NCBI GenBank assembly: GCA_043798915.1
Contig: JAZDOG010000101.1
Span: 1-64,000, forward strand
Direction of reading: 5' to 3'
DNA from: Pseudomonadota bacterium
Lineage (GTDB): Bacteria > UBA10199 > 2-02-FULL-44-16 > JAAZCA01
Length of the DNA stretch: 64,000 nucleotides
Within the stretch, counting starts at the first letter, position 1, and each line of letters starts with the position of its first letter. The translations under genes were made by a program, and so were the position numbers. This document shows, piece after piece, positions 9,700-41,465 of this stretch. The notes beneath the pieces are model-generated. The model searched no databases, had not been told where the DNA came from, and was given only the letters and a program-made list of their open reading frames with translations.

Positions 9700-10098
9700 T
9701 TATTCCTTCCCCTCGGGGCCTGCCGCCGCGGCCAGGCGAGAGAGCTCGTCGCCGACGCTGCGGTAGGTCTCGATCAGGTCCGCGCACAGCGGGCCGTTGA
9801 TGAAGCGGCCATGGAGGTCGCGGCAGAACGAGAGCATGACGATCGCCTCCGTGCAGCGGAGGGCCGCCTCGCCGAGCGCCTGGGCCTTGCACGAGCTTGT
9901 GATGCCGGAGTGCAGGCCGGCGGCGATCAGCCTCGGAACCTCCCTGGCGGAGTGGCCGAGCTTCGTGCCCGTGTCGTCTCCCTCTGAAAGATAGGGCGCG
10001 ATGTTTCTGTGGACCGCGATCGACGCGCTGTAGCTCTGGCGATAGAGCGGGTCGTCCAGCGTCGCCATGATTCCCTCTGCCGATGTCATGTCTGCCAT
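9700..10098 (-). CDS. Four-helix-bundle-like protein (23S rRNA IVP/TIGR02436-like)
   Basis: 132 aa, all helical; YRQSY...KLGHSAREVPRLIAAG...EA pattern resembles the family QLRRAAxSIPxNIAEG motif. Confidence 0.5.
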   Translation of the reverse strand: MADMTSAEGIMATLDDPLYRQSYSASIAVHRNIAPYLSEGDDTGTKLGHSAREVPRLIAAGLHSGITSSCKAQALGEAALRCTEAIVMLSFCRDLHGRFINGPLCADLIETYRSVGDELSRLAAAAGPEGKE

Positions 10099-10108
10099 TT
10101 TCTTCCCC

Positions 10109-12232
10109 CTATCTGGTCTCGACGGCGCCCATATCGTAGCCGCCGCCCTTGGGTCTCGGCGCCCCGCCGAAGTCCACGAACACCGAGCCCATATCCTGCG
10201 CGCTCGCGTTGAGGCCCTGGTCGACGCCGGACGAACCAGCCAGCGCATACGAGGCATCGACGAGCCCCGACGGATCGGCTCCGGAAAGAATCGCGTTGGA
10301 TGACACTGCGGCATTACCCATCGGGAACGATCCGGCGCCTGCGGCATATCCCATCCCGTCGCAGTCGATCACGATGGAGGCGCCGCTCTCCGACGGAAAG
10401 CGCGCGAGGATGTTGTTCTTGATCGCCGAGCCCGCCGCCGGGGCGTCGCCCAGGCAGATCAGGGCATACTGGTCCGGCGCGTCTCCTGTGAAGACGACGT
10501 TGTTGACGAGGACGGGCGATGCTCCCGAGAGCTCCACGCCCTCGGCCACACCCAGATTGGCGTTTCCGGACCTCGCGTCTATCGTGTTGTTGACCGCGAT
10601 CGGAGCCGCGTTCTCAATCCGCAGGCCCGTCGCGAATCTTCCGCTGCCTGCGATGACTATGTTGTCAGTGACCGCGGTGATGCCGCCCTCGATCGAGACG
10701 CCCATGCTTTCGCTTCCGCTCGCGTCCCGGCCGCCGCCGCTCACCCTGTTTCGCGTTATCTTCGCGGTGCCGGAGGCGACGCGGATGCCGATGCCTCTGA
10801 GCGAATTGGCGTTGCCTGCGATCGTGTTGCGTTCGATCGATGCGGAGCCGCTCCTCACGTCCACCGCGACGGAGGGATTGACTGCATCAAAGGACGTCGC
10901 TGCGTTCTCGATGTGAAAGCCGTCTATGACGACCCCGTCTGCGCCGAGCGCCAGGGTCGTCGGGGCGTCGCTCCTCGTCAGGATGGTCTTGAAGACCGGG
11001 GCGTCGCTCCTCACATCGCGGGAGGCGAAGCGCCTGGCGGCATCCGCGTCGTTTGCAAACCCGCCATAGAGCCGGACCGCCGTCGTGATCAGGGCGTTCG
11101 ACACGTCATATATGCCCGCCGCAACGTAGACGGGGAGGCTCCGCGCCTGTGCGATCCTGACCGCCGCGGCTATCGATGCGACAGGCGTAAGGCGCGTGCC
11201 GCGCCATCCGTCAGAGCCGTGCGCGATATCGACGAAGACCGCCTTCACATCGTCGCCCACTCCTGGATCGCTGTCGTCCAAGTCGCACTCGATTGGGACT
11301 CCGTCGCCATCCGCGTCGGCCGTGAGCTGCCTGGGATTGGCCACATATGGGCAGTTGTCGGAGGCGTTGGGGATTCCGTCGCCGTCGATGTCCGGATCAC
11401 AGGCATCGCCCACGCCGTCGTCGTCCCTGTCGGCCTGATCCGGATTCGACACATAGGGGCAGTTGTCCTTCTCGTTCGGTATGCCGTCGCCGTCGATATC
11501 GGGATCGCATGCGTCGCCGATCCCGTCGCCGTCGGCGTCCTCCTGATCCGGATTGGCGCCAAGCGGGCAGTTGTCCTTTCCATCCGGCACGCCGTCGCCG
11601 TCCGTGTCGGGATTGGGCGGATTGATGTCGAGGCTCGCCTCGTTTGCTTTATCAGGATCGCATGCGTCGCCGATCCCATTGCCATTGGCGTCCTTCTGAT
11701 CCTGGTTGGCGCCAAGCGGGCAGTTGTCCTTTCCATCCGGCACGCCGTCGCCGTCCGTGTCGGAATTTCGCGGATCGGTGCCCTTGACCAGCTCGTCGAC
11801 GTTCGGGAGGCCATCGCTGTCGTCGTCGGAGGTGAAGTCGTACGCCGTGGCAGCGACATCGGGCAGAACCGCGCTCTCCTCTGATGTGAGCGGCACGGAC
11901 ACGACTGCCAGCAGGATATCCTGCGCTGCCGAATGCCGGAATTCGATCCTCAGGGTTGCGCCTGTGTCCGGTATCGCTGCGATCGGCAGGATGGAGAAAC
12001 TCCATGTGCCATTGCTCAGCTGCCCGTCCGCCGGGGCGGAGAGCACGGATTCCCCCGGCCCGATGAGCGTCGCCTTCGCCTTGAGCTCCGAGGCGTATAT
12101 CGAGAGCTTGTCCGGATAGGAGGCGCTGAATTTATACTCTCTCGCGCCGCTTCCGCTGCCGCTTCCACTCCCGCCTCCGCAGGCTGCGGCAGCAAGCGCG
12201 AAGAAAATTGCGATCATCATTGTCTTTCGCAT
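10109..12232 (-). CDS. Lipoprotein with thrombospondin type-3-like Ca-binding repeats and beta-helix domain
   Basis: Lipobox AAAC; repeated DTDGDGVPDGKDNCP..NPDQ.D.DGDGIGDACD; C-terminal DFGGAPRPKGGGYDMGAVE. Confidence 0.85.
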   Translation of the reverse strand: MRKTMMIAIFFALAAAACGGGSGSGSGSGAREYKFSASYPDKLSIYASELKAKATLIGPGESVLSAPADGQLSNGTWSFSILPIAAIPDTGATLRIEFRHSAAQDILLAVVSVPLTSEESAVLPDVAATAYDFTSDDDSDGLPNVDELVKGTDPRNSDTDGDGVPDGKDNCPLGANQDQKDANGNGIGDACDPDKANEASLDINPPNPDTDGDGVPDGKDNCPLGANPDQEDADGDGIGDACDPDIDGDGIPNEKDNCPYVSNPDQADRDDDGVGDACDPDIDGDGIPNASDNCPYVANPRQLTADADGDGVPIECDLDDSDPGVGDDVKAVFVDIAHGSDGWRGTRLTPVASIAAAVRIAQARSLPVYVAAGIYDVSNALITTAVRLYGGFANDADAARRFASRDVRSDAPVFKTILTRSDAPTTLALGADGVVIDGFHIENAATSFDAVNPSVAVDVRSGSASIERNTIAGNANSLRGIGIRVASGTAKITRNRVSGGGRDASGSESMGVSIEGGITAVTDNIVIAGSGRFATGLRIENAAPIAVNNTIDARSGNANLGVAEGVELSGASPVLVNNVVFTGDAPDQYALICLGDAPAAGSAIKNNILARFPSESGASIVIDCDGMGYAAGAGSFPMGNAAVSSNAILSGADPSGLVDASYALAGSSGVDQGLNASAQDMGSVFVDFGGAPRPKGGGYDMGAVETR

Positions 12233-20485: not shown

Positions 20486-20699
20486 GATAAACAATGGAAC
20501 CGATAAGGTCCTCGCTTCGGCTCGCCGCCTCAGAAGTCGGCGGCTCGCCTGCGCCTCACTCGCCGAGCTTTTAGGCTTCTGTTTTCGGCTCGTGCCCCGC
20601 AGCGCGGATTCCCACGCTGCGGGACTTCGGCGTTAGATAGATCTTCCTGTCGGAAGGTCGCAGACGCCGCTCGGCACCTCATCGGTTCCATTGCTTATC
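20486..20699. mobile_element. MITE-like hairpin element, left copy
   Basis: 19-bp terminal IR with one mismatch (GATAAACAATGGAACCGAT/ATCGGTTCCATTGCTTATC); body is the reverse complement of 28538..28685 plus a ~65-bp insert. Confidence 0.7.
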
Positions 20700-20869: not shown

Positions 20870-22639
20870 ATGTGGCCAGACAAAGAGTCGAGTAGTGATT
20901 ATCTAAATTTTGGAGAAGTTTCCCAGCTTGCAGTTGATATCTTAACTTCACCTCCCATGTTGCCTGTTTCTCTGGGAGTGTTTGGTAATTGGGGTGCCGG
21001 GAAGTCTTCTCTTTTGAAGTTGATCGAGAATGGTTTGCAATCGGATGGCGCGGATCGACTGGTAATAAATTTTGATGCTTGGTTGTATCAAGGATATGAT
21101 GACGCTCGCGCAGCTTTGCTTGAAGTTATAGCCAGAAATTTGCATAAGGCCGTTAAGGATAATGAAAGTCTTCTTCAAAAAACAAAAAGGCTTTTAGCCA
21201 GAGTAGACGGTTTTCGAATGCTTGGCTTTATCGCGGAGGGCGTTGCATTAGTTCATGGCGTTCCTACAGGAGGTATCCTATATCGTGGCGTTTCTGCAAT
21301 TTCAAATTTAACTGATGGCATTCAAGGCGAAGAGTATCAGGATTTAACAAGATCAGCGTCAGAAGTTATTGGAGAAGTAAAGAAGCTCATCAAGCCACCC
21401 CCCGATGAAACGCCACCACAGCAAATTGAAGCCTTCAGAAAAGAGTATAGCGAAATCCTAAACGAACTAGGCAAACCACTTATAGTAATCATTGATAATC
21501 TTGACAGGTGTCTTCCTTCAAATGCTATTCATACTCTGGAAGCGATTCGTTTGTTTTTATTTTTACCTAACACTGCTTTTGTTATTGCAGCAGATGAGGA
21601 GATGATAAGAATTGCGGTTGCAGAATATTTTAAGGGGTCGTCAGGACGACACCATATTGATTACCTAGATAAGCTTATTCAGGTTCCAATTAATGTTCCT
21701 AAAGCTGGTTTACTCGAAATTCGTTCGTACCTTTTTATGCTTTTTGCCATAGAACACGGAGTGGAAAGCGATCAACTAGAAACCTTACGTAAGGGACTGG
21801 AAGTTTCACTGCAAAGGTCCTGGAATGAAGATCCTATTTCTAAAGATGCTGCACTTAAGCTAACTGGAAAATCTGAGGATGGAAAACTAGCTACGGCATA
21901 TGAGTTGGCCGATAGAATTGCGCCAATATTAGCAACGTCGCCCATTATTCACGGAAACCCTAGAATTGTTAAACGTCTGCTCAATGTAGTAAGAATGCGG
22001 AGCAAAATTGCAAGGCGGCGTGAGATGCCCCTTAGCGAAGAAGTAATTACAAAACTAGTGATTTTTGAACGTTGCGCTGGAGTAGAGGCTACCACCGAAC
22101 TTTATAAGTTAGTTGATGCAGAATCTGGAAAACCAAAAATTCTGACTCAGCTGGAAAGTGCCGGCACAGAAGAACTTCCGTCTGATGCTCCAAATAGCTG
22201 GGGCAATAATCCCACGACCAAAAAATTCATTTTGGATTGGATAAAGCTTGAACCATCGCTCAAAGATAAAGACCTGCGTCCAGCTATTTACCTTTCACGG
22301 GAAACAATGCCTATAGGTGCCTATGTTATAGGGTTGTCTCCTAAAAGTCGGGAAGCTTTAAATACTCTGGCAAATGTTAGTGCAATCTCGTCTCCTGAGG
22401 GAAAGAAAACGGCAGAAAGCATACCATTAGAAGATAGGGTTCCTGTTATGGAGGGAATTGTTGATCATCTACGCGAAGTTGCAGATTGGTCGAAACAACC
22501 AAAGGGATTTGCTGGGGCTGTGTTGCTAGCTGAGATTTCCCCAGATGCAGCCAAAATATTTAAAAGGTTTGCCGATGGTTTAGGCAACAAGAAACCGTGG
22601 ATGAACGCTATGATTAAGGATAAAGAATGGAATAGGTAA
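20870..22639 (+). CDS. qatA: Qat anti-phage system KAP-family P-loop NTPase
   Basis: MWPDKES..DYLNF start; Walker A GNWGAGKSS; FDAWLYQGYDDA; Walker B IIDNLDRC; YLDKLIQVP; GNPRIVKRLLN. Confidence 0.88.
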   Translation: MWPDKESSSDYLNFGEVSQLAVDILTSPPMLPVSLGVFGNWGAGKSSLLKLIENGLQSDGADRLVINFDAWLYQGYDDARAALLEVIARNLHKAVKDNESLLQKTKRLLARVDGFRMLGFIAEGVALVHGVPTGGILYRGVSAISNLTDGIQGEEYQDLTRSASEVIGEVKKLIKPPPDETPPQQIEAFRKEYSEILNELGKPLIVIIDNLDRCLPSNAIHTLEAIRLFLFLPNTAFVIAADEEMIRIAVAEYFKGSSGRHHIDYLDKLIQVPINVPKAGLLEIRSYLFMLFAIEHGVESDQLETLRKGLEVSLQRSWNEDPISKDAALKLTGKSEDGKLATAYELADRIAPILATSPIIHGNPRIVKRLLNVVRMRSKIARRREMPLSEEVITKLVIFERCAGVEATTELYKLVDAESGKPKILTQLESAGTEELPSDAPNSWGNNPTTKKFILDWIKLEPSLKDKDLRPAIYLSRETMPIGAYVIGLSPKSREALNTLANVSAISSPEGKKTAESIPLEDRVPVMEGIVDHLREVADWSKQPKGFAGAVLLAEISPDAAKIFKRFADGLGNKKPWMNAMIKDKEWNR

Positions 22640-22643
22640 TAAA

Positions 22644-23396
22644 ATGGGAACATCTCAATCAAGCCCAGGTCCCGTTGGCATATCTCCCTTGGTGCCGCCA
22701 TGGGGAGATGATCAGCCACAGAAACCCTTACCCCCACCTGAACCTCGAAGGTTTGCGAGCTTTCGACAATCGCTTGGAAGCTTTGTTAAGGACAGAGACC
22801 TGGGGAAACTTAAGTCAGTGCTTGGTCACTATGCATCCACTGCATCTGGTGGTGGTAAGATAGTTGCTCGTCGCATGAACGGTGCAGCGCAGGCTGGCGC
22901 AGATCTGTATAATTTTCTCAGTGGAGTTCAAAAGTCTACTATCAAAGAGGCCGCGTTTAATTTAGCTGCATTGGCCAATCAACCATGCGAAGTGGCAATC
23001 AACATAATTGTTCAGGCGCTCACTGAAGATGGAGGAGATGCTGATAAAAATCGAGCATCCATGACAAATGCATTATGTGAAGCTCTCGATGGGATTGACA
23101 CTTTTGATCCAATGAAAATTACGGATGAGATTATCCTCACTACGATGATTTGTTTTCTGACTGAAAGTATTTTTCATCAAATAGTAATGGATGCTGGTAA
23201 AGCGTGGAACAAAGCAGACACCCCTTCAAAAGTCGTGAATGCTGAAAATGATTTGAGAGAACTTATTAAGGCAGTCGTCGATAAATATATGGCCCCCAGT
23301 TTATCAGGAAAAGTTAATTCATTTACTCGTCAGAGGATGCTTCGACTTGAGAAAGAAGTGTTGGTTAACGTATGGGCGGAATGGGAGACCTATTAG
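22644..23396 (+). CDS. qatB: Qat anti-phage system protein QatB
   Basis: Characteristic N-terminus MGTSQSSPGP...PLVPPW; position between the KAP NTPase and the QueC-like gene. Confidence 0.85.
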   Translation: MGTSQSSPGPVGISPLVPPWGDDQPQKPLPPPEPRRFASFRQSLGSFVKDRDLGKLKSVLGHYASTASGGGKIVARRMNGAAQAGADLYNFLSGVQKSTIKEAAFNLAALANQPCEVAINIIVQALTEDGGDADKNRASMTNALCEALDGIDTFDPMKITDEIILTTMICFLTESIFHQIVMDAGKAWNKADTPSKVVNAENDLRELIKAVVDKYMAPSLSGKVNSFTRQRMLRLEKEVLVNVWAEWETY

Positions 23397-24691
23397 TGAC
23401 AAGAGTGATAATTCATCATGATTGCAATAAGCTTCCACGCCAACGAAAAAGGTTGGTCTCGGTGCACATTTATGGCTTGGGCAATGGAAACTGTTCTAGT
23501 ATTGGTCATCCTCTAATCGAAAAAATTAAGCGGCTCGGTATAACACTGTCTCCGGCTGTGATGGATTTCCTTACGATTGCCTTGGCGGTTAATGCGGCTG
23601 ATTCGTTTGTTAAACGCCGAGAAATGGTTGATGGATGGACACGAGAAATTATTTTGCAGGTTTCGCTTTGTGAACCAGAGTCATGGTTAAAGGTAAAAAG
23701 TAGGCTTGAAAAAACTCTACGCTTTCTAAGCGGCGATTTATGGAAGTTGGAAATTAATGATAATGGCTTCAAACCACCCAAACCATATAGAAGCCAAGAT
23801 CGTTTTAAGTTGTTAAGATTGAAAGGGCTTGATTCTGTTAGCCTGTTTTCGGGTGGGCTAGATAGCGCAATAGGTGTTATTAATTTGCTAAATGAAGGCA
23901 AAAAACCACTTTTGGTTAGCTATGCATACAGAGGTGACAAGTCTCATCAAAACGCTGCTGAAAAGTATCTTCAAGGTGAATATTCAAGGTTTTGGGCTAA
24001 CGCGTATCCTCAATCAGCTAATGGAGAATATGAAATTAGCATGCGCACTCGTAGCATTAACTTTCTCGCCTTAGGGATAATTGGATGCTACGCTGTTGGA
24101 TATGTGAATGGTTTAAAGAATCTTCCCCTTTATGTGCCGGAAAATGGTTTTATATCACTTAATGTGCCCTTAACGCCACGCCGCATTGGTTCATTGAGTA
24201 CACGAACTACACATCCATATTTTCTATGTTCTATTGAGGAAATTTTACAATGTGTTGGCATTAATAGTAAAATAATTAACCCTTACCAGTTTCAAACAAA
24301 GGGAGAAATGGCGCAGTTATGCAGCAACCTGAATATCCTGAAGAATATGGTTTCGAAAACAGTATCGTGTGGCCACTGGAAAAGAAGGAACAAACAATGT
24401 GGCTGCTGTGTTCCCTGTATAATAAGGAGGGCGGCTATTAAACAAGCTGGATTGAATGAACCTGCACTATATCATTTTCAAGACCTTAAGAGCGTACTTA
24501 ATGACGATAATACGAAAGATGACCTCTTTGCTCTTTCAAACGCAATATCTCACTTGTCATCGCGAAATATAAACTCATGGATAATGAATAGTGGGCCTAT
24601 ACCATCGAAGCAATTTGAAGATTATAAATCGCTCTTTACGCGAGGATTGAAGGAAGTCGAAAGTTTCTTGCTGGGCGAGCATGTATTATGA
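23396..24691 (+). CDS. qatC: Qat anti-phage system QueC-like protein
   Basis: DFLTIALAV..AD..DGWTR, PP-loop LFSGGLDS, RTRS, PENGFISLN, STRTTHP, NPYQFQTKGEM, SCGH..CGCCVPCIIRR. Confidence 0.9.
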   Translation: MTRVIIHHDCNKLPRQRKRLVSVHIYGLGNGNCSSIGHPLIEKIKRLGITLSPAVMDFLTIALAVNAADSFVKRREMVDGWTREIILQVSLCEPESWLKVKSRLEKTLRFLSGDLWKLEINDNGFKPPKPYRSQDRFKLLRLKGLDSVSLFSGGLDSAIGVINLLNEGKKPLLVSYAYRGDKSHQNAAEKYLQGEYSRFWANAYPQSANGEYEISMRTRSINFLALGIIGCYAVGYVNGLKNLPLYVPENGFISLNVPLTPRRIGSLSTRTTHPYFLCSIEEILQCVGINSKIINPYQFQTKGEMAQLCSNLNILKNMVSKTVSCGHWKRRNKQCGCCVPCIIRRAAIKQAGLNEPALYHFQDLKSVLNDDNTKDDLFALSNAISHLSSRNINSWIMNSGPIPSKQFEDYKSLFTRGLKEVESFLLGEHVL

Positions 24692-24773
24692 CATTAATGT
24701 TAATCTCTACTCAAAATCTGATTCACCGTGTCACTTTGTTAAAGACGTAGAAATGCAAGGAGCGATAAACAAT

Positions 24774-25892
24774 ATGAAAAGTTCTGAAGCAACCAAGTTA
24801 AACATCGATTCATCACCGTCGATTTTGCCACGTCCAATACTCGTGGCAAGCTTTACTCAGAGAATGGATTCGTGCCTGTCTGGTGACTCCCTACAACCTC
24901 TCCTCCTTCTCGGCAACGCACGAACCGTCCTTGACCAATTCCCTACATCATCCATCGATTTTGCTATGACCTCGCCGCCATATTGGGGAAAACGTGAGTA
25001 TGAAAGCGGAGGTATTGGTCTTGAGAATAACTACGGGGATTTCATCCGTAATCTGTCGGATGTGTTTATGGCACTTTCTCGTGTTCTTAAACCAGAGGGC
25101 TCATTCTGGCTCAACATAGGCGACACTTACCAGGATAAAAAATTGGTGGGTATTCCTTGGAGGGTAGCACTAGAACTTACAGATAAACAGGGCTGGATTC
25201 TTCGTAATAGTGTAATCTGGAATAAAATCAAGAGTGGAATGGACAACACTAAAGATAGGCTCGGAAATATTCACGAACATGTATTTCACTTTGTTAAACA
25301 ACCAAAATATTATTACGATGCTGATGCTATTCGCTCAAAACCAAGAGAGGCACGAATAGTGAATGGCGCTGTTGTATCTGCTACCGGAGTATCAGGCGTT
25401 CGCTACAAGCGACAAATCGAACTCTCTACATCATTGAATAAAGAGGAAAAACAGGCGGCTTCCAAGGCGTTGAGCCAGATTCTGACAGATGTAGGTGCAG
25501 GAAAAATCTCAGATTTTCGAATGATTATTCGCGGACAACAACGTGCAACACACTCTGACAAAGAAAAGGTGTCAGGAAGGGCAAAGGAATTGCGTGATAA
25601 AGGATTCTACTTCCTTCGGTACCATCCAAACGGAAGCAAGCCAGCCGACGTGTGGGATATTATGCCAGAAGATACACAACAAAGGAAGATGCATTATGCA
25701 TCGTATCCAGTCGACTTATGTCGGATTCCTATTCTTGCAACTTGTCCTCCCGGAGGCGTGGTGCTCGATCCGTTCTGTGGAACCGGTACAACACTTATTG
25801 CAGCTCGTAACCTTGGGCGAAAGTCAATTGGAATTGACATATCAAGTCAATACCTGAAAATTGCGGAGGAAAGATGCACGACGCTTCTATGA
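24774..25892 (+). CDS. Site-specific amino-DNA methyltransferase (beta class, probably N4-C)
   Basis: Motif IV TSPPYW precedes motif I VLDPFCGTGT; start uncertain (24681, 24753 or 24774). Confidence 0.92.
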   Translation: MKSSEATKLNIDSSPSILPRPILVASFTQRMDSCLSGDSLQPLLLLGNARTVLDQFPTSSIDFAMTSPPYWGKREYESGGIGLENNYGDFIRNLSDVFMALSRVLKPEGSFWLNIGDTYQDKKLVGIPWRVALELTDKQGWILRNSVIWNKIKSGMDNTKDRLGNIHEHVFHFVKQPKYYYDADAIRSKPREARIVNGAVVSATGVSGVRYKRQIELSTSLNKEEKQAASKALSQILTDVGAGKISDFRMIIRGQQRATHSDKEKVSGRAKELRDKGFYFLRYHPNGSKPADVWDIMPEDTQQRKMHYASYPVDLCRIPILATCPPGGVVLDPFCGTGTTLIAARNLGRKSIGIDISSQYLKIAEERCTTLL

Positions 25893-26740
25893 GTACAGTT
25901 GTCGAACTATTTGGTCATGCCGTTGATAGCCAGCGGAAAGATTGGGCACGTGTTGTACGTAATCAGCAATGTCCATTTTTAGAAAAGACATGTTACAAGG
26001 TTCGAAAGAGCGATCCTAATATCTCAATAGGTTCATGTACTGTACTCTACGGTAGGACCAAAGAACCTGTTGTTATCTGCCCAACACGCCTTCTTGAACG
26101 ACACCAGATATTCACCGATTGCTTGCATCTTTTAACCATGCATGAGCCGGGGAATGAGCTCCACATTATTCCCGAAGTTTCAATACCTGGTGGAAGCGTT
26201 GATTATTTCTTGGCTTCCGCGCTAAAGGGAAAGGTAAAAGATTTCGTTGGTATCGAGATTCAGACGTTGGATACTACAGGTACCGTGTGGCCGGAACGTC
26301 AGCGACTGCTCAAAAAACTTGGAATTCCGCGTAGAGACAAAGAAGAGTTATCCAACAAGTCCTACGGTATGAACTGGAAAATGACCGCCAAAACGATCTT
26401 AGTCCAGATGCACCATAAGATTCAAACTTTTGAGCATGTCAACAAAAAGCTAGTACTTATCTTACAGGATAAACTTTTCCAGTACATGACTAATGAATTT
26501 ACATTTGGACATTTAAATAAACCGGCAATCCTGGGCGATTCAATGCATATGCATGTGTATCAATTAGAAAAGCAGGTTAACCGACTGTTTAAGTTAGGGA
26601 TGAATGCTCGATTAAGCACGGACTCCGAAGGAATTGCGGCATGCCTTGGTCTCCAAGCGGAAGCTCGAGTTGAGTTGACTCAAATTGTTGCTGCTCTTGA
26701 AGCGAAGCTATCTCCAAGCACGCTTCTCAAGCCAGTATAA
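25889..26740 (+). CDS. NotI-family type II restriction endonuclease
   Basis: Four-Cys cluster CPF..C.K...GSC...CPTR, followed by PD-(D/E)xK-like VDYFL...GIEIQTLDTTG and GMNWK; ATGA-coupled to the methyltransferase. Confidence 0.8.
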   Translation: MSTVVELFGHAVDSQRKDWARVVRNQQCPFLEKTCYKVRKSDPNISIGSCTVLYGRTKEPVVICPTRLLERHQIFTDCLHLLTMHEPGNELHIIPEVSIPGGSVDYFLASALKGKVKDFVGIEIQTLDTTGTVWPERQRLLKKLGIPRRDKEELSNKSYGMNWKMTAKTILVQMHHKIQTFEHVNKKLVLILQDKLFQYMTNEFTFGHLNKPAILGDSMHMHVYQLEKQVNRLFKLGMNARLSTDSEGIAACLGLQAEARVELTQIVAALEAKLSPSTLLKPV

Positions 26741-26878
26741 CTGTGGTTGTTCCAAAAGGCATCGGCCTTAGAAAAAGAGTTTCCCGATGTGGAAGTTGTT
26801 GAAGATGTTGGTTTTTAAATGGGGGTGCTGCAAAAGTGGTCAGTTGTGAGCAATTGATGCAGATGTTATTTCAGCGCG

Positions 26879-27061
26879 GTTACTGAGGACTGCATAACTT
26901 ATTGCGCAGATGACACAGGATGATGAGCCGAGACAAGGAAGATGAGCAAAAAGCGCGGAGGCGTAGCCATAGCTACGTTGAGCACTTTTTGCGAAATCTG
27001 ACGCAGTCGCAGGCCATCAGCCGAAGTCAGATGTGTAATAAGTTATGCAGTCCTCAGTAAC
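26879..27061. mobile_element. MITE-like element with 25-bp perfect terminal inverted repeats
   Basis: GTTACTGAGGACTGCATAACTTATT ... AATAAGTTATGCAGTCCTCAGTAAC; internal hairpin CGTAGC-CATA-GCTACG; non-coding. Confidence 0.8.
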
Positions 27062-27087
27062 ATATGCTAACCAAACGGTGCGAGCTG

Positions 27088-27160
27088 GCTTCATGGGATC
27101 CCCGCGGCGCTCCTCGGTTGCCACGATCTCCATGGCAAAACCCGCGCCTCGGGATGACAG
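27088..27160. repeat. Right arm of the split palindromic element
   Basis: Complementary to 20312..20370. Confidence 0.55.
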
Positions 27161-27290
27161 GCAGGGGGAGAAATGAGCAGTTTGCTCGTTCATTCAAGGC
27201 CGACTGGCTGATTTGCTCCTGCCACTAAACCTCCGGCGGGCAGGTAGGGCGCGGCAATCGGGGGAGAGCAAGAGACCTAGAGGCCATAAT

Positions 27291-28304
27291 ATGAAACTAG
27301 TCAAACGATTGGATAATCAATTCGCCGAAGTTGTAAGGATGATTCATGAGGCCCGGTACAATGCTATCAAGAGCGTCAACACCGAGCTGGTCAAACTATA
27401 TTGGAGCATAGGCGGGTATGTCAGCAGAAAGATCGAATCCGCGGAATGGGGCGATGCCGTTGTGGACAGCCTTGCCGATTTCATTCAAACTAACGACCCG
27501 GAATTTAAGGGTTTTACGCGACGGAGCCTTTACAGGATGCGCCAGTTTCATGAAACATACCCGCAGAAGAAATTTGTGTCGGCAGTGCTGACACAAATCA
27601 GCTGGACCAACCACCTGCTCATACTCTCCAAAACTAAATCAATGGAGGAGCGTAAATTTTACCTGATGTTATCCGTGAAGGAAAAATATAGTTCGCGCGA
27701 GCTTGAGCGTCAGATAGACAGCGGTTATTATGAACGAGCAATGCTTTCCAGGAAAAAAGTGTCGCCAGCGCTGATACAAATTCACCCTGGTATAACAGAC
27801 GTTTTCAAAGACATCTACGTTTTGGATTTCCTGAGTCTCCCAGCGATGCACAGCGAAAAAGACCTTCAAACAAGTATTGTTGCCAATTTAAGGGACTTTA
27901 TCCTTGAATTCGGCAAGGATTTTACATTCATCGGCCAAGAATATCGAATTCAAGTGGGTAAGAACGACTATTTCATTGATCTTTTATTCTTTCACCGAGG
28001 ACTGAAATGTCTCGTTATGATCGAATTGAAGATAACCGATTTTAAGCCGGAGTATCTTGGCAAGCTGAATTTCTATTTGGAAGCGCTGGACCGCGATATT
28101 CGAAAAGAGGGAGAAAATCCAAGCGTAGGCATTATTCTATGCAAGTCAAAAGACGATGAAGTTGTGGAATACGCGCTCAGCCGCAATCTATCGCCTGCCA
28201 TGATTGCTGAATATAAAACAAAGCTCATCCCTAAAAAAATATTGCAGAAGAAGCTACACGAGTTGTTTATGCTAAACGAACCAGACATAAAGAATGACAG
28301 GTAA
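27291..28304 (+). CDS. DUF1016/YhcG-family PD-(D/E)xK nuclease
   Basis: LYWSIG, WGDAVV, SLYRMRQF, SSRELERQI, FKDIYVLDFL, IDLLFFHR..IELK, GKLNFYL. Confidence 0.92.
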   Translation: MKLVKRLDNQFAEVVRMIHEARYNAIKSVNTELVKLYWSIGGYVSRKIESAEWGDAVVDSLADFIQTNDPEFKGFTRRSLYRMRQFHETYPQKKFVSAVLTQISWTNHLLILSKTKSMEERKFYLMLSVKEKYSSRELERQIDSGYYERAMLSRKKVSPALIQIHPGITDVFKDIYVLDFLSLPAMHSEKDLQTSIVANLRDFILEFGKDFTFIGQEYRIQVGKNDYFIDLLFFHRGLKCLVMIELKITDFKPEYLGKLNFYLEALDRDIRKEGENPSVGIILCKSKDDEVVEYALSRNLSPAMIAEYKTKLIPKKILQKKLHELFMLNEPDIKNDR

Positions 28305-28537: not shown

Positions 28538-28685
28538 GAAAGTGATGGAACCGATGATTTGTCGAGCGGCGTCTGAGCGAGCCGAAATCAGCAGCCTTAA
28601 AAGCTCGGCGAGCGAGGCGCAGGCGAACCGCCGGCGTCTGAGGCGGTGAGCCGTAGCGAGACATATCACCGGTTCCATCACTTTC
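28538..28685. mobile_element. MITE-like hairpin element, right copy (inverted relative to 20486..20699)
   Basis: 16-bp perfect terminal IR GAAAGTGATGGAACCG/CGGTTCCATCACTTTC; body homologous to the left copy. Confidence 0.7.
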
Positions 28686-40077: not shown

Positions 40078-41465
40078 CTCAAGCCAGGCTGATAGACACC
40101 CACGCCCACCTCACATTTCCGGAGTTCGACTCGGACCGCGCCGCGGTCCTTGAGCGCGCATGGGAGACGGGCCTCGATGACATTGTCCTCGTCGGCGCCG
40201 GCGAGGGGTTGGAAGGCAACGCGCGCGCGCTTGAGCTCGCCCGCACGGACGAGCGCCTCTTCGCGATCGTGGGCGTGCATCCGCACGACGCGGGGAAGAT
40301 GGAGGTCTCGTGGCTGGGGGAGCTGGAAAAGTTCGCTGCGGACGAGAAGGTGGTGGCGATCGGCGAGGTCGGGCTCGATTATCACCACAAGGAAACCGAT
40401 CCGGATGTCCAGCGTAAATGTTTCAGGGGGATGCTCGCCCTGGCGGAAAGGGCGGGCAAGCCCGTCGTCATACACGATCGCGAGGCGCACGACGACGTGT
40501 GGCGGATCATCGAGGAGGTCGGCGTCCCGAAGCGGGGCGGCCTCTTCCATTGCTTCTCCGGGGATTCCAGGTTTGCCGGCTGCGTGACGGAGGCAGGTTT
40601 TCATATCTCCATTCCCGGGGTGGTGACGTTTAAAAACGCGAGGATCCTTCAGGAGGTGGTAGCCGACATTCCGCTCGAGCGCATGGTGATAGAGACGGAC
40701 TGCCCCTTTCTCGCCCCGGAGCCGCACAGGGGAAAGCGGAACGAGCCGGCCTTCGTCTCTCTGGTGGCGAAGAAGATCGCCGAGATCAAGGGGCTCTATC
40801 CCGAAGATGTCGCGCGCGTGACGACCTTGAACGCCAGGCGCCTCTTCGGTCTGCCCGGCTGCGAGCTCGAGCCCCACATCGCCTATCGGATCCGCAATTC
40901 GCTCTATCTGAACATCACTAACAGGTGCAATCTCGCCTGCCGCTTCTGCCCGAAGTTCACCGACTACGAGGTGAAGGGATATTACCTGAGGCTCCACACC
41001 GAGCCGGACGTCGAACAGATATTCCAGGCGATGGGCCAGCCCGAGAACTACGACGAGGTCGTCTTCTGCGGGTACGGCGAGCCGACGCTACGCATCGAGG
41101 TGCTCAAGGCCATCGCAAAGCGCATGAAGGAGAAGGGGGTCGCCAGAGTCCGGCTCAACACCGACGGGCTGGCGTGTCTCCTCTATGGGCGCAACGTCCT
41201 TCTGGAGCTCGCCGGGCTCATCGACGCCGTCTCCGTCTCGCTCAATGCCTCCGATGCAGAGACCTACACGAATAATTGCCCTTCCAGATTCGGGCTCGAT
41301 GCGTACAATGCTGTCTGCGCGTTCATCGCGGAAGCGAAGCGCCACATCCCGGAGGTTACAGCGTCGATCGTCGCGCTTCCGGGCATCGATGTCGAGGCGT
41401 GCCGCAGGAAGGCCGCGGAGCTGGGAGTGCCTCTGCGCGTGAGAGAATACATGAATGTTGGGTGA
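40074..41465 (+). CDS. tatD: TatD-family DNase fused to a TatD-associated radical SAM domain
   Basis: IDTHAHL, GVHPH, IGEVGLDY, HCFSG, ETDCPFL; then LYLNITNRCNLACRFC and FCGYGEP. Confidence 0.92.
   Translation: MTQARLIDTHAHLTFPEFDSDRAAVLERAWETGLDDIVLVGAGEGLEGNARALELARTDERLFAIVGVHPHDAGKMEVSWLGELEKFAADEKVVAIGEVGLDYHHKETDPDVQRKCFRGMLALAERAGKPVVIHDREAHDDVWRIIEEVGVPKRGGLFHCFSGDSRFAGCVTEAGFHISIPGVVTFKNARILQEVVADIPLERMVIETDCPFLAPEPHRGKRNEPAFVSLVAKKIAEIKGLYPEDVARVTTLNARRLFGLPGCELEPHIAYRIRNSLYLNITNRCNLACRFCPKFTDYEVKGYYLRLHTEPDVEQIFQAMGQPENYDEVVFCGYGEPTLRIEVLKAIAKRMKEKGVARVRLNTDGLACLLYGRNVLLELAGLIDAVSVSLNASDAETYTNNCPSRFGLDAYNAVCAFIAEAKRHIPEVTASIVALPGIDVEACRRKAAELGVPLRVREYMNVG

Follow-up and report, generated by a model that had tools for sequence, protein, structure and literature searches.

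QatABCD is an anti-phage system that was reportedly described by Gao et al. 2020. Structures and genetics of the system have been published (PMC13279940, PMC13376578, PMC13639016 and PMC13434339), and according to the available parts of these reports QatB and QatC form a complex (PMC13279940, PMC13376578, PMC13434339), the MGTS motif of QatB is conserved, and this motif with its G2 residue is essential, as is the active site of QatC (PMC13279940). The same partial accounts state that QatBC alone defends against some phages, among them lambda-vir with the systems of two species (PMC13279940), and that deletion of QatA or QatD narrows the phage range (PMC13279940, echoed in PMC13376578 and PMC13434339). 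Here, we analysed a window of 64,000 nucleotides from a Pseudomonadota bacterium (GenBank assembly GCA_043798915.1, contig JAZDOG010000101.1, positions 1 to 64,000 of the forward strand), in which qatA, qatB and qatC are followed by a DNA methyltransferase (methylase) gene and a gene for a NotI-fold endonuclease. A preliminary description of this DNA had proposed a hybrid operon, with the restriction-modification (R-M) pair filling the QatD slot and being guarded or activated by QatABC, and had named a truncated Qat beside an independent R-M system as the fallback. Our results speak for the latter. The locus most likely consists of a QatD-less QatABC module and an independent type II R-M system, which are neighbours in a mosaic island.

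The five open reading frames (ORFs) are all on the + strand and tightly packed, as had been seen beforehand, and the identities proposed for their products were borne out by PADLOC, Pfam and NCBIfam and, for the NotI family, by the predicted fold. The first gene, qatA (20870-22639, + strand), encodes a KAP-family P-loop NTPase of 589 aa. Its ORF opens at TTG 20831, and the PADLOC model PDLC02210 (6e-278, profile positions 1-592 of 593) matches from ORF residue 14, which is the ATG at 20870. QatA also matches Pfam KAP_NTPase (1e-49) and keeps the Walker A columns (G..GxGKS). The second gene, qatB (22644-23396, + strand), encodes the predicted substrate protein with an MGTS N-terminus (PADLOC PDLC02212, 1e-95, profile positions 1-248 of 248), a start whose significance had rightly been stressed. 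The third, qatC (23372-24691, + strand), encodes a QueC-like PP-loop enzyme (PADLOC PDLC02214, 3e-125; Pfam QueC) that scores 398.8 bits with the NCBIfam QatC model (cut-off 280). All three proteins span their PADLOC profiles from one end to the other. QatA and QatB stay below the strict equivalog cut-offs of NCBIfam (386 vs 600 and 98.6 vs 100, respectively).

The three proteins were then compared with homologues whose alignment spans 85% or more of the query, taking only columns that are at least 90% conserved. All 70 such columns are kept in QatA (102 homologues) and all 15 in QatB (72 homologues), including G2, T3, S4, P18 and W20. QatC keeps 65 of 67 (130 homologues), including the SGG.DS motif and the C333/C343/C346/C349 cluster, and its two departures, Q289E and L410I, are conservative. 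The window thus resembles the known system in its full-length QatA, QatB and QatC, their canonical order with the usual small overlaps, the MGTS start, the PP-loop and the cysteine cluster. However, unlike that system, it has no gene for QatD, either at the locus or in the rest of the genome.

The host genome is metagenome-assembled (105 contigs, 97% complete, 3.3% contamination). Searched as a whole with the PADLOC QatD model, it yielded no bona fide qatD. The sole match is a housekeeping-type TatD at 40080-40844 of the window with 73 bits, whereas full-length QatDs beside qatC in other genomes reach 163-340 bits with the same model. The model also found matches in 13 of 14 control genomes, which indicates that it detects ordinary TatD. 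This TatD gene lies ∼15 kb downstream of qatC inside a 530-codon open frame and is the only TatD match in the genome; it was the one candidate for a qatD elsewhere in the genome, and it was rejected as such. Within the island, no QatD was matched either by the PADLOC model or by a custom profile, which we built from 64 verified QatDs and ran with 683 island peptides as controls, so that the absence of qatD from the locus, already remarked on, holds with two profiles. A faint likeness by eye between the first codons at 24681 and a qatD 5′ end was also followed up, and this possible remnant was discarded, the 24-residue peptide obtaining no score with the QatD profile. Pieces of at least 8 aa in 24660-24780 and 26735-27215 scored -0.1 bits or lower with this profile, within the range of the controls. 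Because QatD is missing from both island and genome, the locus is, as far as its gene content tells, a truncated Qat and not a full member of QatABCD.

Loss of qatD is rare. We collected 160 other QatC loci, 80 from species-representative genomes and 80 from metagenome contigs, with up to 5-9 kb of DNA on each side; the best QatC identity to the window is 54% in the genomes and 60% in the metagenome contigs, and viral contigs gave no QatC relatives. QatD sequence stands beside qatC in 157 of the 158 loci that have room for it. The gene is intact, directly downstream and on the same strand in 143 of the 160 loci, intact and adjacent but inverted in one (locus L051), and partial or damaged in 13, where at least five copies are cut by contig ends and the other eight are broken, have internal deletions or lie close to a contig end. 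Two loci leave no room to judge, and a single one (L198) has no qatD despite room. These counts, which bear out the earlier remark that QatD is normally present, agree with the available part of PMC13434339, where full qatABCD makes up 98.1% (n = 619) of clusters. That part also names qatD-only, qatBCD, qatABBCD, qatCD, qatABD and qatABCCD as further forms, with no qatABC-only form in the list. Methylase and NotI-like genes were found in place of qatD in none of the 160 loci, a homologue of neither window protein being present in the DNA fetched.

In a FastTree phylogeny of 131 QatC proteins (30 loci were left out for a best alignment below 85% of the query, or a stop), the window QatC is sister to that of locus L174 (support 0.97) and falls in a clade of 12 leaves (0.97). 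All 11 other members of this clade have qatD, so that its loss in the window lineage is a tip event. The QatC of L198 is not the sister of the window QatC, and the two losses are thus independent. L198 (2559-6452) shares with the window the presence of QatA, QatB and QatC and the lack of qatD. However, its D slot is empty, and qatC is followed by convergent genes of housekeeping type, for a response regulator and a histidine kinase. The QatC of L198 is also longer (500 aa).

The gene that follows qatD could be assessed in 117 of 118 loci, one being dropped for a size limit. It matches a PADLOC model (1e-8) in 35 of them, and six of these 35 are R-M parts, namely four type I endonucleases, one type III endonuclease and one type II methylase. 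Other irregular loci were also noted. In L051 the intact opposite-strand qatD (10158-10919) is convergent with qatC, and a yhcG-type gene comes after it. The QatD matches downstream of qatC in L025 and L215 are limited to profile positions 1-73 and 175-213 within a single open frame, and an internal part of QatD may have been deleted there. Five QatC relatives are longer proteins, two of them fused to a tyrosine recombinase and three with an unassigned extension, and no NotI-type domain is on record in any of the five. The two fused forms (clusters P0001 and P0002; 775-797 aa) carry a QatC 40-42% identical to that of the window in frame with the recombinase domain; they are either real fusions or cases of a recombinase gene abutting qatC in the place of qatD.

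Downstream of qatC, the methylase gene (24774-25892, + strand; alternative start 24753) encodes a beta-class amino-DNA-methyltransferase (Pfam N6_N4_Mtase, 1e-47; PADLOC MTase_II, 1e-67), in which motif IV (SPPY) precedes motif I (FCGTG), the order of the beta class. Methylases that act on N4 of cytosine have the SPPY form more often than those that act on N6 of adenine, and for this reason our guess is that the product is N4-methylcytosine. The endonuclease gene (25874-26740, + strand; 288 aa) overlaps the end of the methylase gene by 19 nt. Its product matches Pfam NotI with 23.9 bits (cut-off 22) and PADLOC REase_II with 1e-12; a profile of 23 homologues compared with Protein Data Bank (PDB) sequences found NotI as its only match, at a non-significant E of 0.77. 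The assignment was settled by the predicted fold. For the AlphaFold model (mean predicted local distance difference test score 81.7), the top four Foldseek matches in the PDB are NotI chains (3c25/3bvq; E 6e-10 to 9e-8, probability 1.00), with template modelling scores of 0.58-0.61 on the query, and the next entry is SfsA at 9e-4. C33, C40, C55 and C69, a putative metal site, are invariant in the 23 homologues; in the profile alignment, three of these residues fall on cysteines of NotI.

The pair has in common with NotI-family systems the fold, an N-terminal four-cysteine cluster that would be the metal site, an E-x-Q-T-x-D block that aligns with NotI, and a methylase gene immediately upstream with overlapping stop and start. 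The differences lie in length, the solved NotI chain having 383 aa against 288 aa in the window, and in an identity of only 16-18%. NotI cuts GCGGCCGC, a site that does not transfer to the window endonuclease. Palindrome avoidance in the genome, where the most avoided 6-mer is AGATCT (ratio 0.50), gave nothing that points to the window R-M pair.

We then considered where this pair occurs in other genomes. The endonuclease has 181 relatives, and the best 80 loci were kept (55-84% identity); these 80 span Nitrospirota, Planctomycetota, Pseudomonadota, Acidobacteriota, Bacteroidota, Chloroflexota and others. A methylase gene stands directly upstream of the endonuclease gene in 78 of the 80, the other two beginning at a contig end, and in 79 of the 80 no Qat gene lies within 7 kb. 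Given that the pair is absent from the 160 QatC loci, is kept together in 78 of 80 endonuclease loci and is free of Qat in 79 of 80, it is independent of Qat elsewhere, as the fallback reading of the preliminary description had supposed. Both window proteins are full-length versions of stand-alone ones. The methylase is 76-82% identical to its closest stand-alone relatives (L090-L098 and L105) over at least residues 30-403, the endonuclease is 84% identical to stand-alone relatives and collinear with them over residues 1-288, and neither has an extra domain. With the conserved columns of QatABC kept, and the methylase and endonuclease collinear with stand-alone versions and lacking any added domain, both modules look functional and unmodified to judge from their sequences.

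The sole exception among the 80 loci is L125, where a complete QatABCD (QatD, 314 bits) is followed by a tyrosine recombinase gene, the methylase gene, the endonuclease gene and a DndB-like gene, all co-oriented; the R-M pair lies ∼1.1 kb downstream of QatABCD. As in the window, Qat and the same R-M family are co-oriented within one island. However, L125 has QatD, a recombinase gene between QatD and the methylase, and the DndB-like gene after the endonuclease. This island (L125, 1-10100) belongs to a Vampirovibrionales metagenome-assembled genome, also holds a co-oriented, unassigned gene of 316 aa, and ends near a sub-threshold match to Rfam sRNA-Xcc1 (9995-10083, 38.9 bits; gathering score 53).

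Relatives of the pair are also found on small plasmids, where RefSeq names them NotI family restriction endonuclease and site-specific DNA-methyltransferase, and on one viral contig. On the 9-kb plasmid pBspH9 of Acinetobacter sp. NEB 394 (L258, 1908-3873), the pair is 57% identical to that of the window. The name of this strain suggests that it serves for enzyme production, and a recorded specificity, if there is one, would offer a first guess at the target of the family. In L090 (5840-7896), L092 (943-2998) and L093 (5845-7899), the pair is flanked by a 12-nt inverted repeat, with a single occurrence on either side, and a tyrosine recombinase (Phage_int_SAM_4 and Phage_integrase) is encoded within 2 kb. 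L095 and L096 have no such recombinase, so that three of the closest five loci examined have one, as does L125. In L093, moreover, ∼100 nt of the left flank are repeated downstream of the pair. The window shows the left 12-nt repeat with mismatches at 4 of 12 positions, a right repeat was looked for without success, and a recombinase is lacking. The flanking inverted repeats and the nearby recombinase of the closest relatives suggest that the pair may be a recombinase-moved cassette, integron-type or similar. For 64 R-M loci, 1.5 kb or more of upstream sequence was available. With a crude ORF caller, the upstream ORF of these loci is co-oriented with the methylase gene in 48 and separated from it by 100 nt or less in 19. 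The cassette therefore often sits snugly behind unrelated genes. Since Qat loci, too, often abut other defence genes, the tight packing in the window is not special.

The junction between qatC and the methylase gene was then considered. The R-M cassette occupies the usual position of qatD and is co-oriented with qatC. An overlap of the two genes had been proposed on the ground that the methylase frame stays open as far back as ATG 24681, which is 11 nt short of the qatC end. Such a start can indeed be read, but the homologues do not support it. In L090 a stop codon comes right before the residue aligned to window residue 30, and in L092 and L093 the open frame reaches back to just one codon ahead of the residue aligned to window residue 21. 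The first methionines of these three closest homologues with informative frames align with window residues ∼27-32. For these reasons the real start is most likely ATG 24774, with AAGGAG 11 nt upstream, or else ATG 24753, as far as the alignments tell. Either would leave a gap of 61-82 nt between qatC and the methylase gene, without overlap or translational coupling. At the nucleotide level, the window resembles the closest R-M cassettes (73-77% identity) from 24861 to a few bases short of the endonuclease stop, and protein similarity to the closest methylases reaches back to residue ∼21-30. The spacer where qatD would begin (24692-24773, + strand) is open in the methylase frame, is not homologous to qatD and, in relatives, does not belong to the methylase.

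No repeat was found at this junction. A search of sequencing runs for evidence of co-transcription listed no RNA run and one DNA run with 8% of the sequence words, from which two contig pieces of 151 nt matched inside the methylase gene, far from the junction. The earlier statement that no terminator separates qatC from the methylase gene stands in part: a consensus scan finds one weak terminator-like hairpin with a 5-bp stem (24667-24679). However, terminator-like sites in the island are at chance level (9 vs 8.0 ± 3.5 in shuffles), as are promoter-like sites (16 vs 14.9 ± 4.5).

The five genes lie in a 7.8-kb low-GC island bounded by host repeats. The block at 20.5-28.7 kb has a GC content of 0.40-0.48 against 0.58-0.65 in the flanks, which confirms the AT-richer block described before. 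The GC content at third codon positions (GC3) is 0.33-0.42 for the five genes from qatA to the endonuclease gene, 0.51 for a yhcG-type gene further downstream and 0.75-0.85 for the flanking host genes. Inverted copies of one repeat family that resembles miniature inverted-repeat transposable elements (MITEs) bracket the island exactly. The left copy (20486-20699) is palindromic, with inverted termini of its own at 20486-20509 and 20676-20699, and the right copy (28538-28685) is 85-90% complementary to it. A second palindromic MITE-like repeat (26879-27061; 56-nt arms, 79% complementary) lies between the R-M pair and the yhcG-type gene. The repeats of the two families measure 150-210 nt. More copies of the boundary family occur on other contigs of the same genome and in related genomes, and the second family is also represented in the same genome (contig C99) and in 11 of 30 related genomes that were searched. 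Both families recur across several related genera.

The DNA from qatA to the endonuclease gene has no match in these 30 related genomes, where matches are confined to the repeats and to yhcG paralogues, and on this ground the island would have been acquired horizontally. We take the block to be a foreign, horizontally acquired mosaic defence island, judging by its composition and distribution. As for an empty site, an orthologue of the right-flank gene was present in 7 of 15 related genomes, but in none of them did the left-flank genes lie within 1.5 kb, and the insertion site could not be reconstructed. No tRNA or known RNA was found at the island ends.

The yhcG-type gene (27291-28304, + strand) encodes a PD-(D/E)xK protein, PADLOC candidate PDC-S02 (5e-133), with the full two-domain match (Pfam DUF1016_N and YhcG_C) of YhcG/DUF1016 proteins. 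The family is multi-copy in this small genome. A second copy, 95-99% identical, is split across the ends of contigs C68 and C57, and there are at least three more distant paralogues; the contigs involved are C68, C57, C32, C66 and C10. Because the gene is separated from the five-gene block by a MITE-like repeat, is multi-copy and differs in composition, it lies outside that block, and we treated it as a separate insertion. Of the 160 QatC loci, 5 also have a yhcG-type gene in the neighbourhood of Qat.

Taken together, the island most likely holds three separate modules. The first would be a canonical QatABC that lost qatD on a terminal branch and whose QatB-QatC core probably still works. The second would be an autonomous type II R-M cassette, in which the methylase would protect host DNA and the NotI-fold endonuclease, with its Cys4 cluster and PD-(D/E)xK-type site, would cut unmodified incoming DNA. 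The multi-copy yhcG-type nuclease gene would be the third. The cassette may have been inserted together with the deletion of qatD, an order of events that we infer, and read-through from the qat promoter may transcribe it. There is no sign of a mutual dependence of Qat and R-M. From the published deletion data in other species, the Qat module of the window is probably still active through its QatB-QatC core, and its spectrum is probably narrower without QatD.

Several points weigh against two modules that merely adjoin. Qat and the R-M pair share their low GC3, and the closest R-M relatives have a GC content of 0.53-0.58; the two modules have probably resided together for long in a low-GC donor, and their composition suggests that the block was transferred as one piece. 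A single transcript of qat and the R-M pair is plausible, because the five genes are co-oriented, the spacer measures 61-82 nt and no convincing terminator or promoter interrupts them. The neighbourhood in L125 goes beyond what chance placement in a genome would produce, although it is in keeping with defence-island clustering. Finally, with qatD kept in nearly all other loci, its unreplaced loss is unusual and raises the question of compensation.

Among the alternatives to a working QatD-less QatABC beside an independent R-M system, one holds that the loss of qatD disabled Qat and that the R-M pair, perhaps with the yhcG-type gene, defends alone. The retention of QatD in 157 of 158 loci with room suggests a natural importance, catalytic QatD mutations lower defence in the original study, as quoted in the available part of PMC13376578, and QatA and QatB score below the equivalog cut-offs. 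However, the three ORFs are intact with 150 of 152 conserved columns kept, which is unexpected for decaying genes, and QatBC alone protects against lambda-vir. We therefore hold an inert Qat remnant to be very unlikely.

The hybrid first proposed takes two forms: the NotI-like endonuclease, tamed by its methylase, would replace QatD as the nuclease arm of Qat, or QatABC would sense an attack on the R-M system and back it up. Its appeal comes from the co-oriented pair in the qatD slot shortly after qatC, from the shared GC3 and from L125 as a second, independent neighbourhood of Qat and the same R-M family. In addition, QatD is reported to contact QatB (available part of PMC13434339), so that a nuclease partner fits the logic of the system. 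However, the closest qatABC homologues all have qatD, and the arrangement is a single occurrence among the 160 QatC loci and the best 80 of 181 endonuclease loci, an outcome that the preliminary description itself had named as speaking against the hybrid. L125 retains QatD and has a recombinase gene between the systems. The methylase and endonuclease have their full length and no added domain, are collinear with stand-alone pairs and reach 82-84% identity to them, the translational overlap is unsupported by homologues, and QatD was dispensable in published deletions, which makes a replacement unneeded. A literature search found no paper on a Qat-restriction hybrid. In E. coli, qatABCD co-localises non-randomly with CBASS I, and the part of that study available names no R-M type as a partner (10.1101/2022.08.21.504612). 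A functional hybrid is thus very unlikely in our judgement. As the shared low GC3 suggests long co-residence, the junction may be old and maintained, with the endonuclease as the nuclease arm of Qat, recruited or licensed by modified QatB, a version to which we likewise give little credence. If a hybrid were true, a protein-tagging sensor core would be coupled to a sequence-specific restriction enzyme, and QatBC cores would be wired to different nucleases, which would inform the question of the effector step of Qat. A chimeric join of qatC and the R-M pair in the assembly, the true locus having qatD, is scarcely credible even in a fragmented and slightly contaminated genome with abundant repeats around the island, since there is no repeat at the junction itself, the same unusual composition extends on both sides within one long contig flanked by host sequence, and the rest of the assembly contains no fragment of qatD.

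Read as a QatD-less QatABC beside an independent R-M system, the locus is of small importance: a known system in truncated form, next to an R-M pair that is ordinary and mobile. It is a caution for the automated calling of defence systems, in that a truncated system abutting another may mimic a new hybrid, and it shows that a compact methylase-endonuclease cassette can come to occupy the position of an operon gene that was lost. For the Qat family, it provides a natural example of QatABC without qatD in a system that keeps QatD in ∼98-99% of loci, in agreement with the laboratory data according to which the QatB-QatC core can act without QatD.

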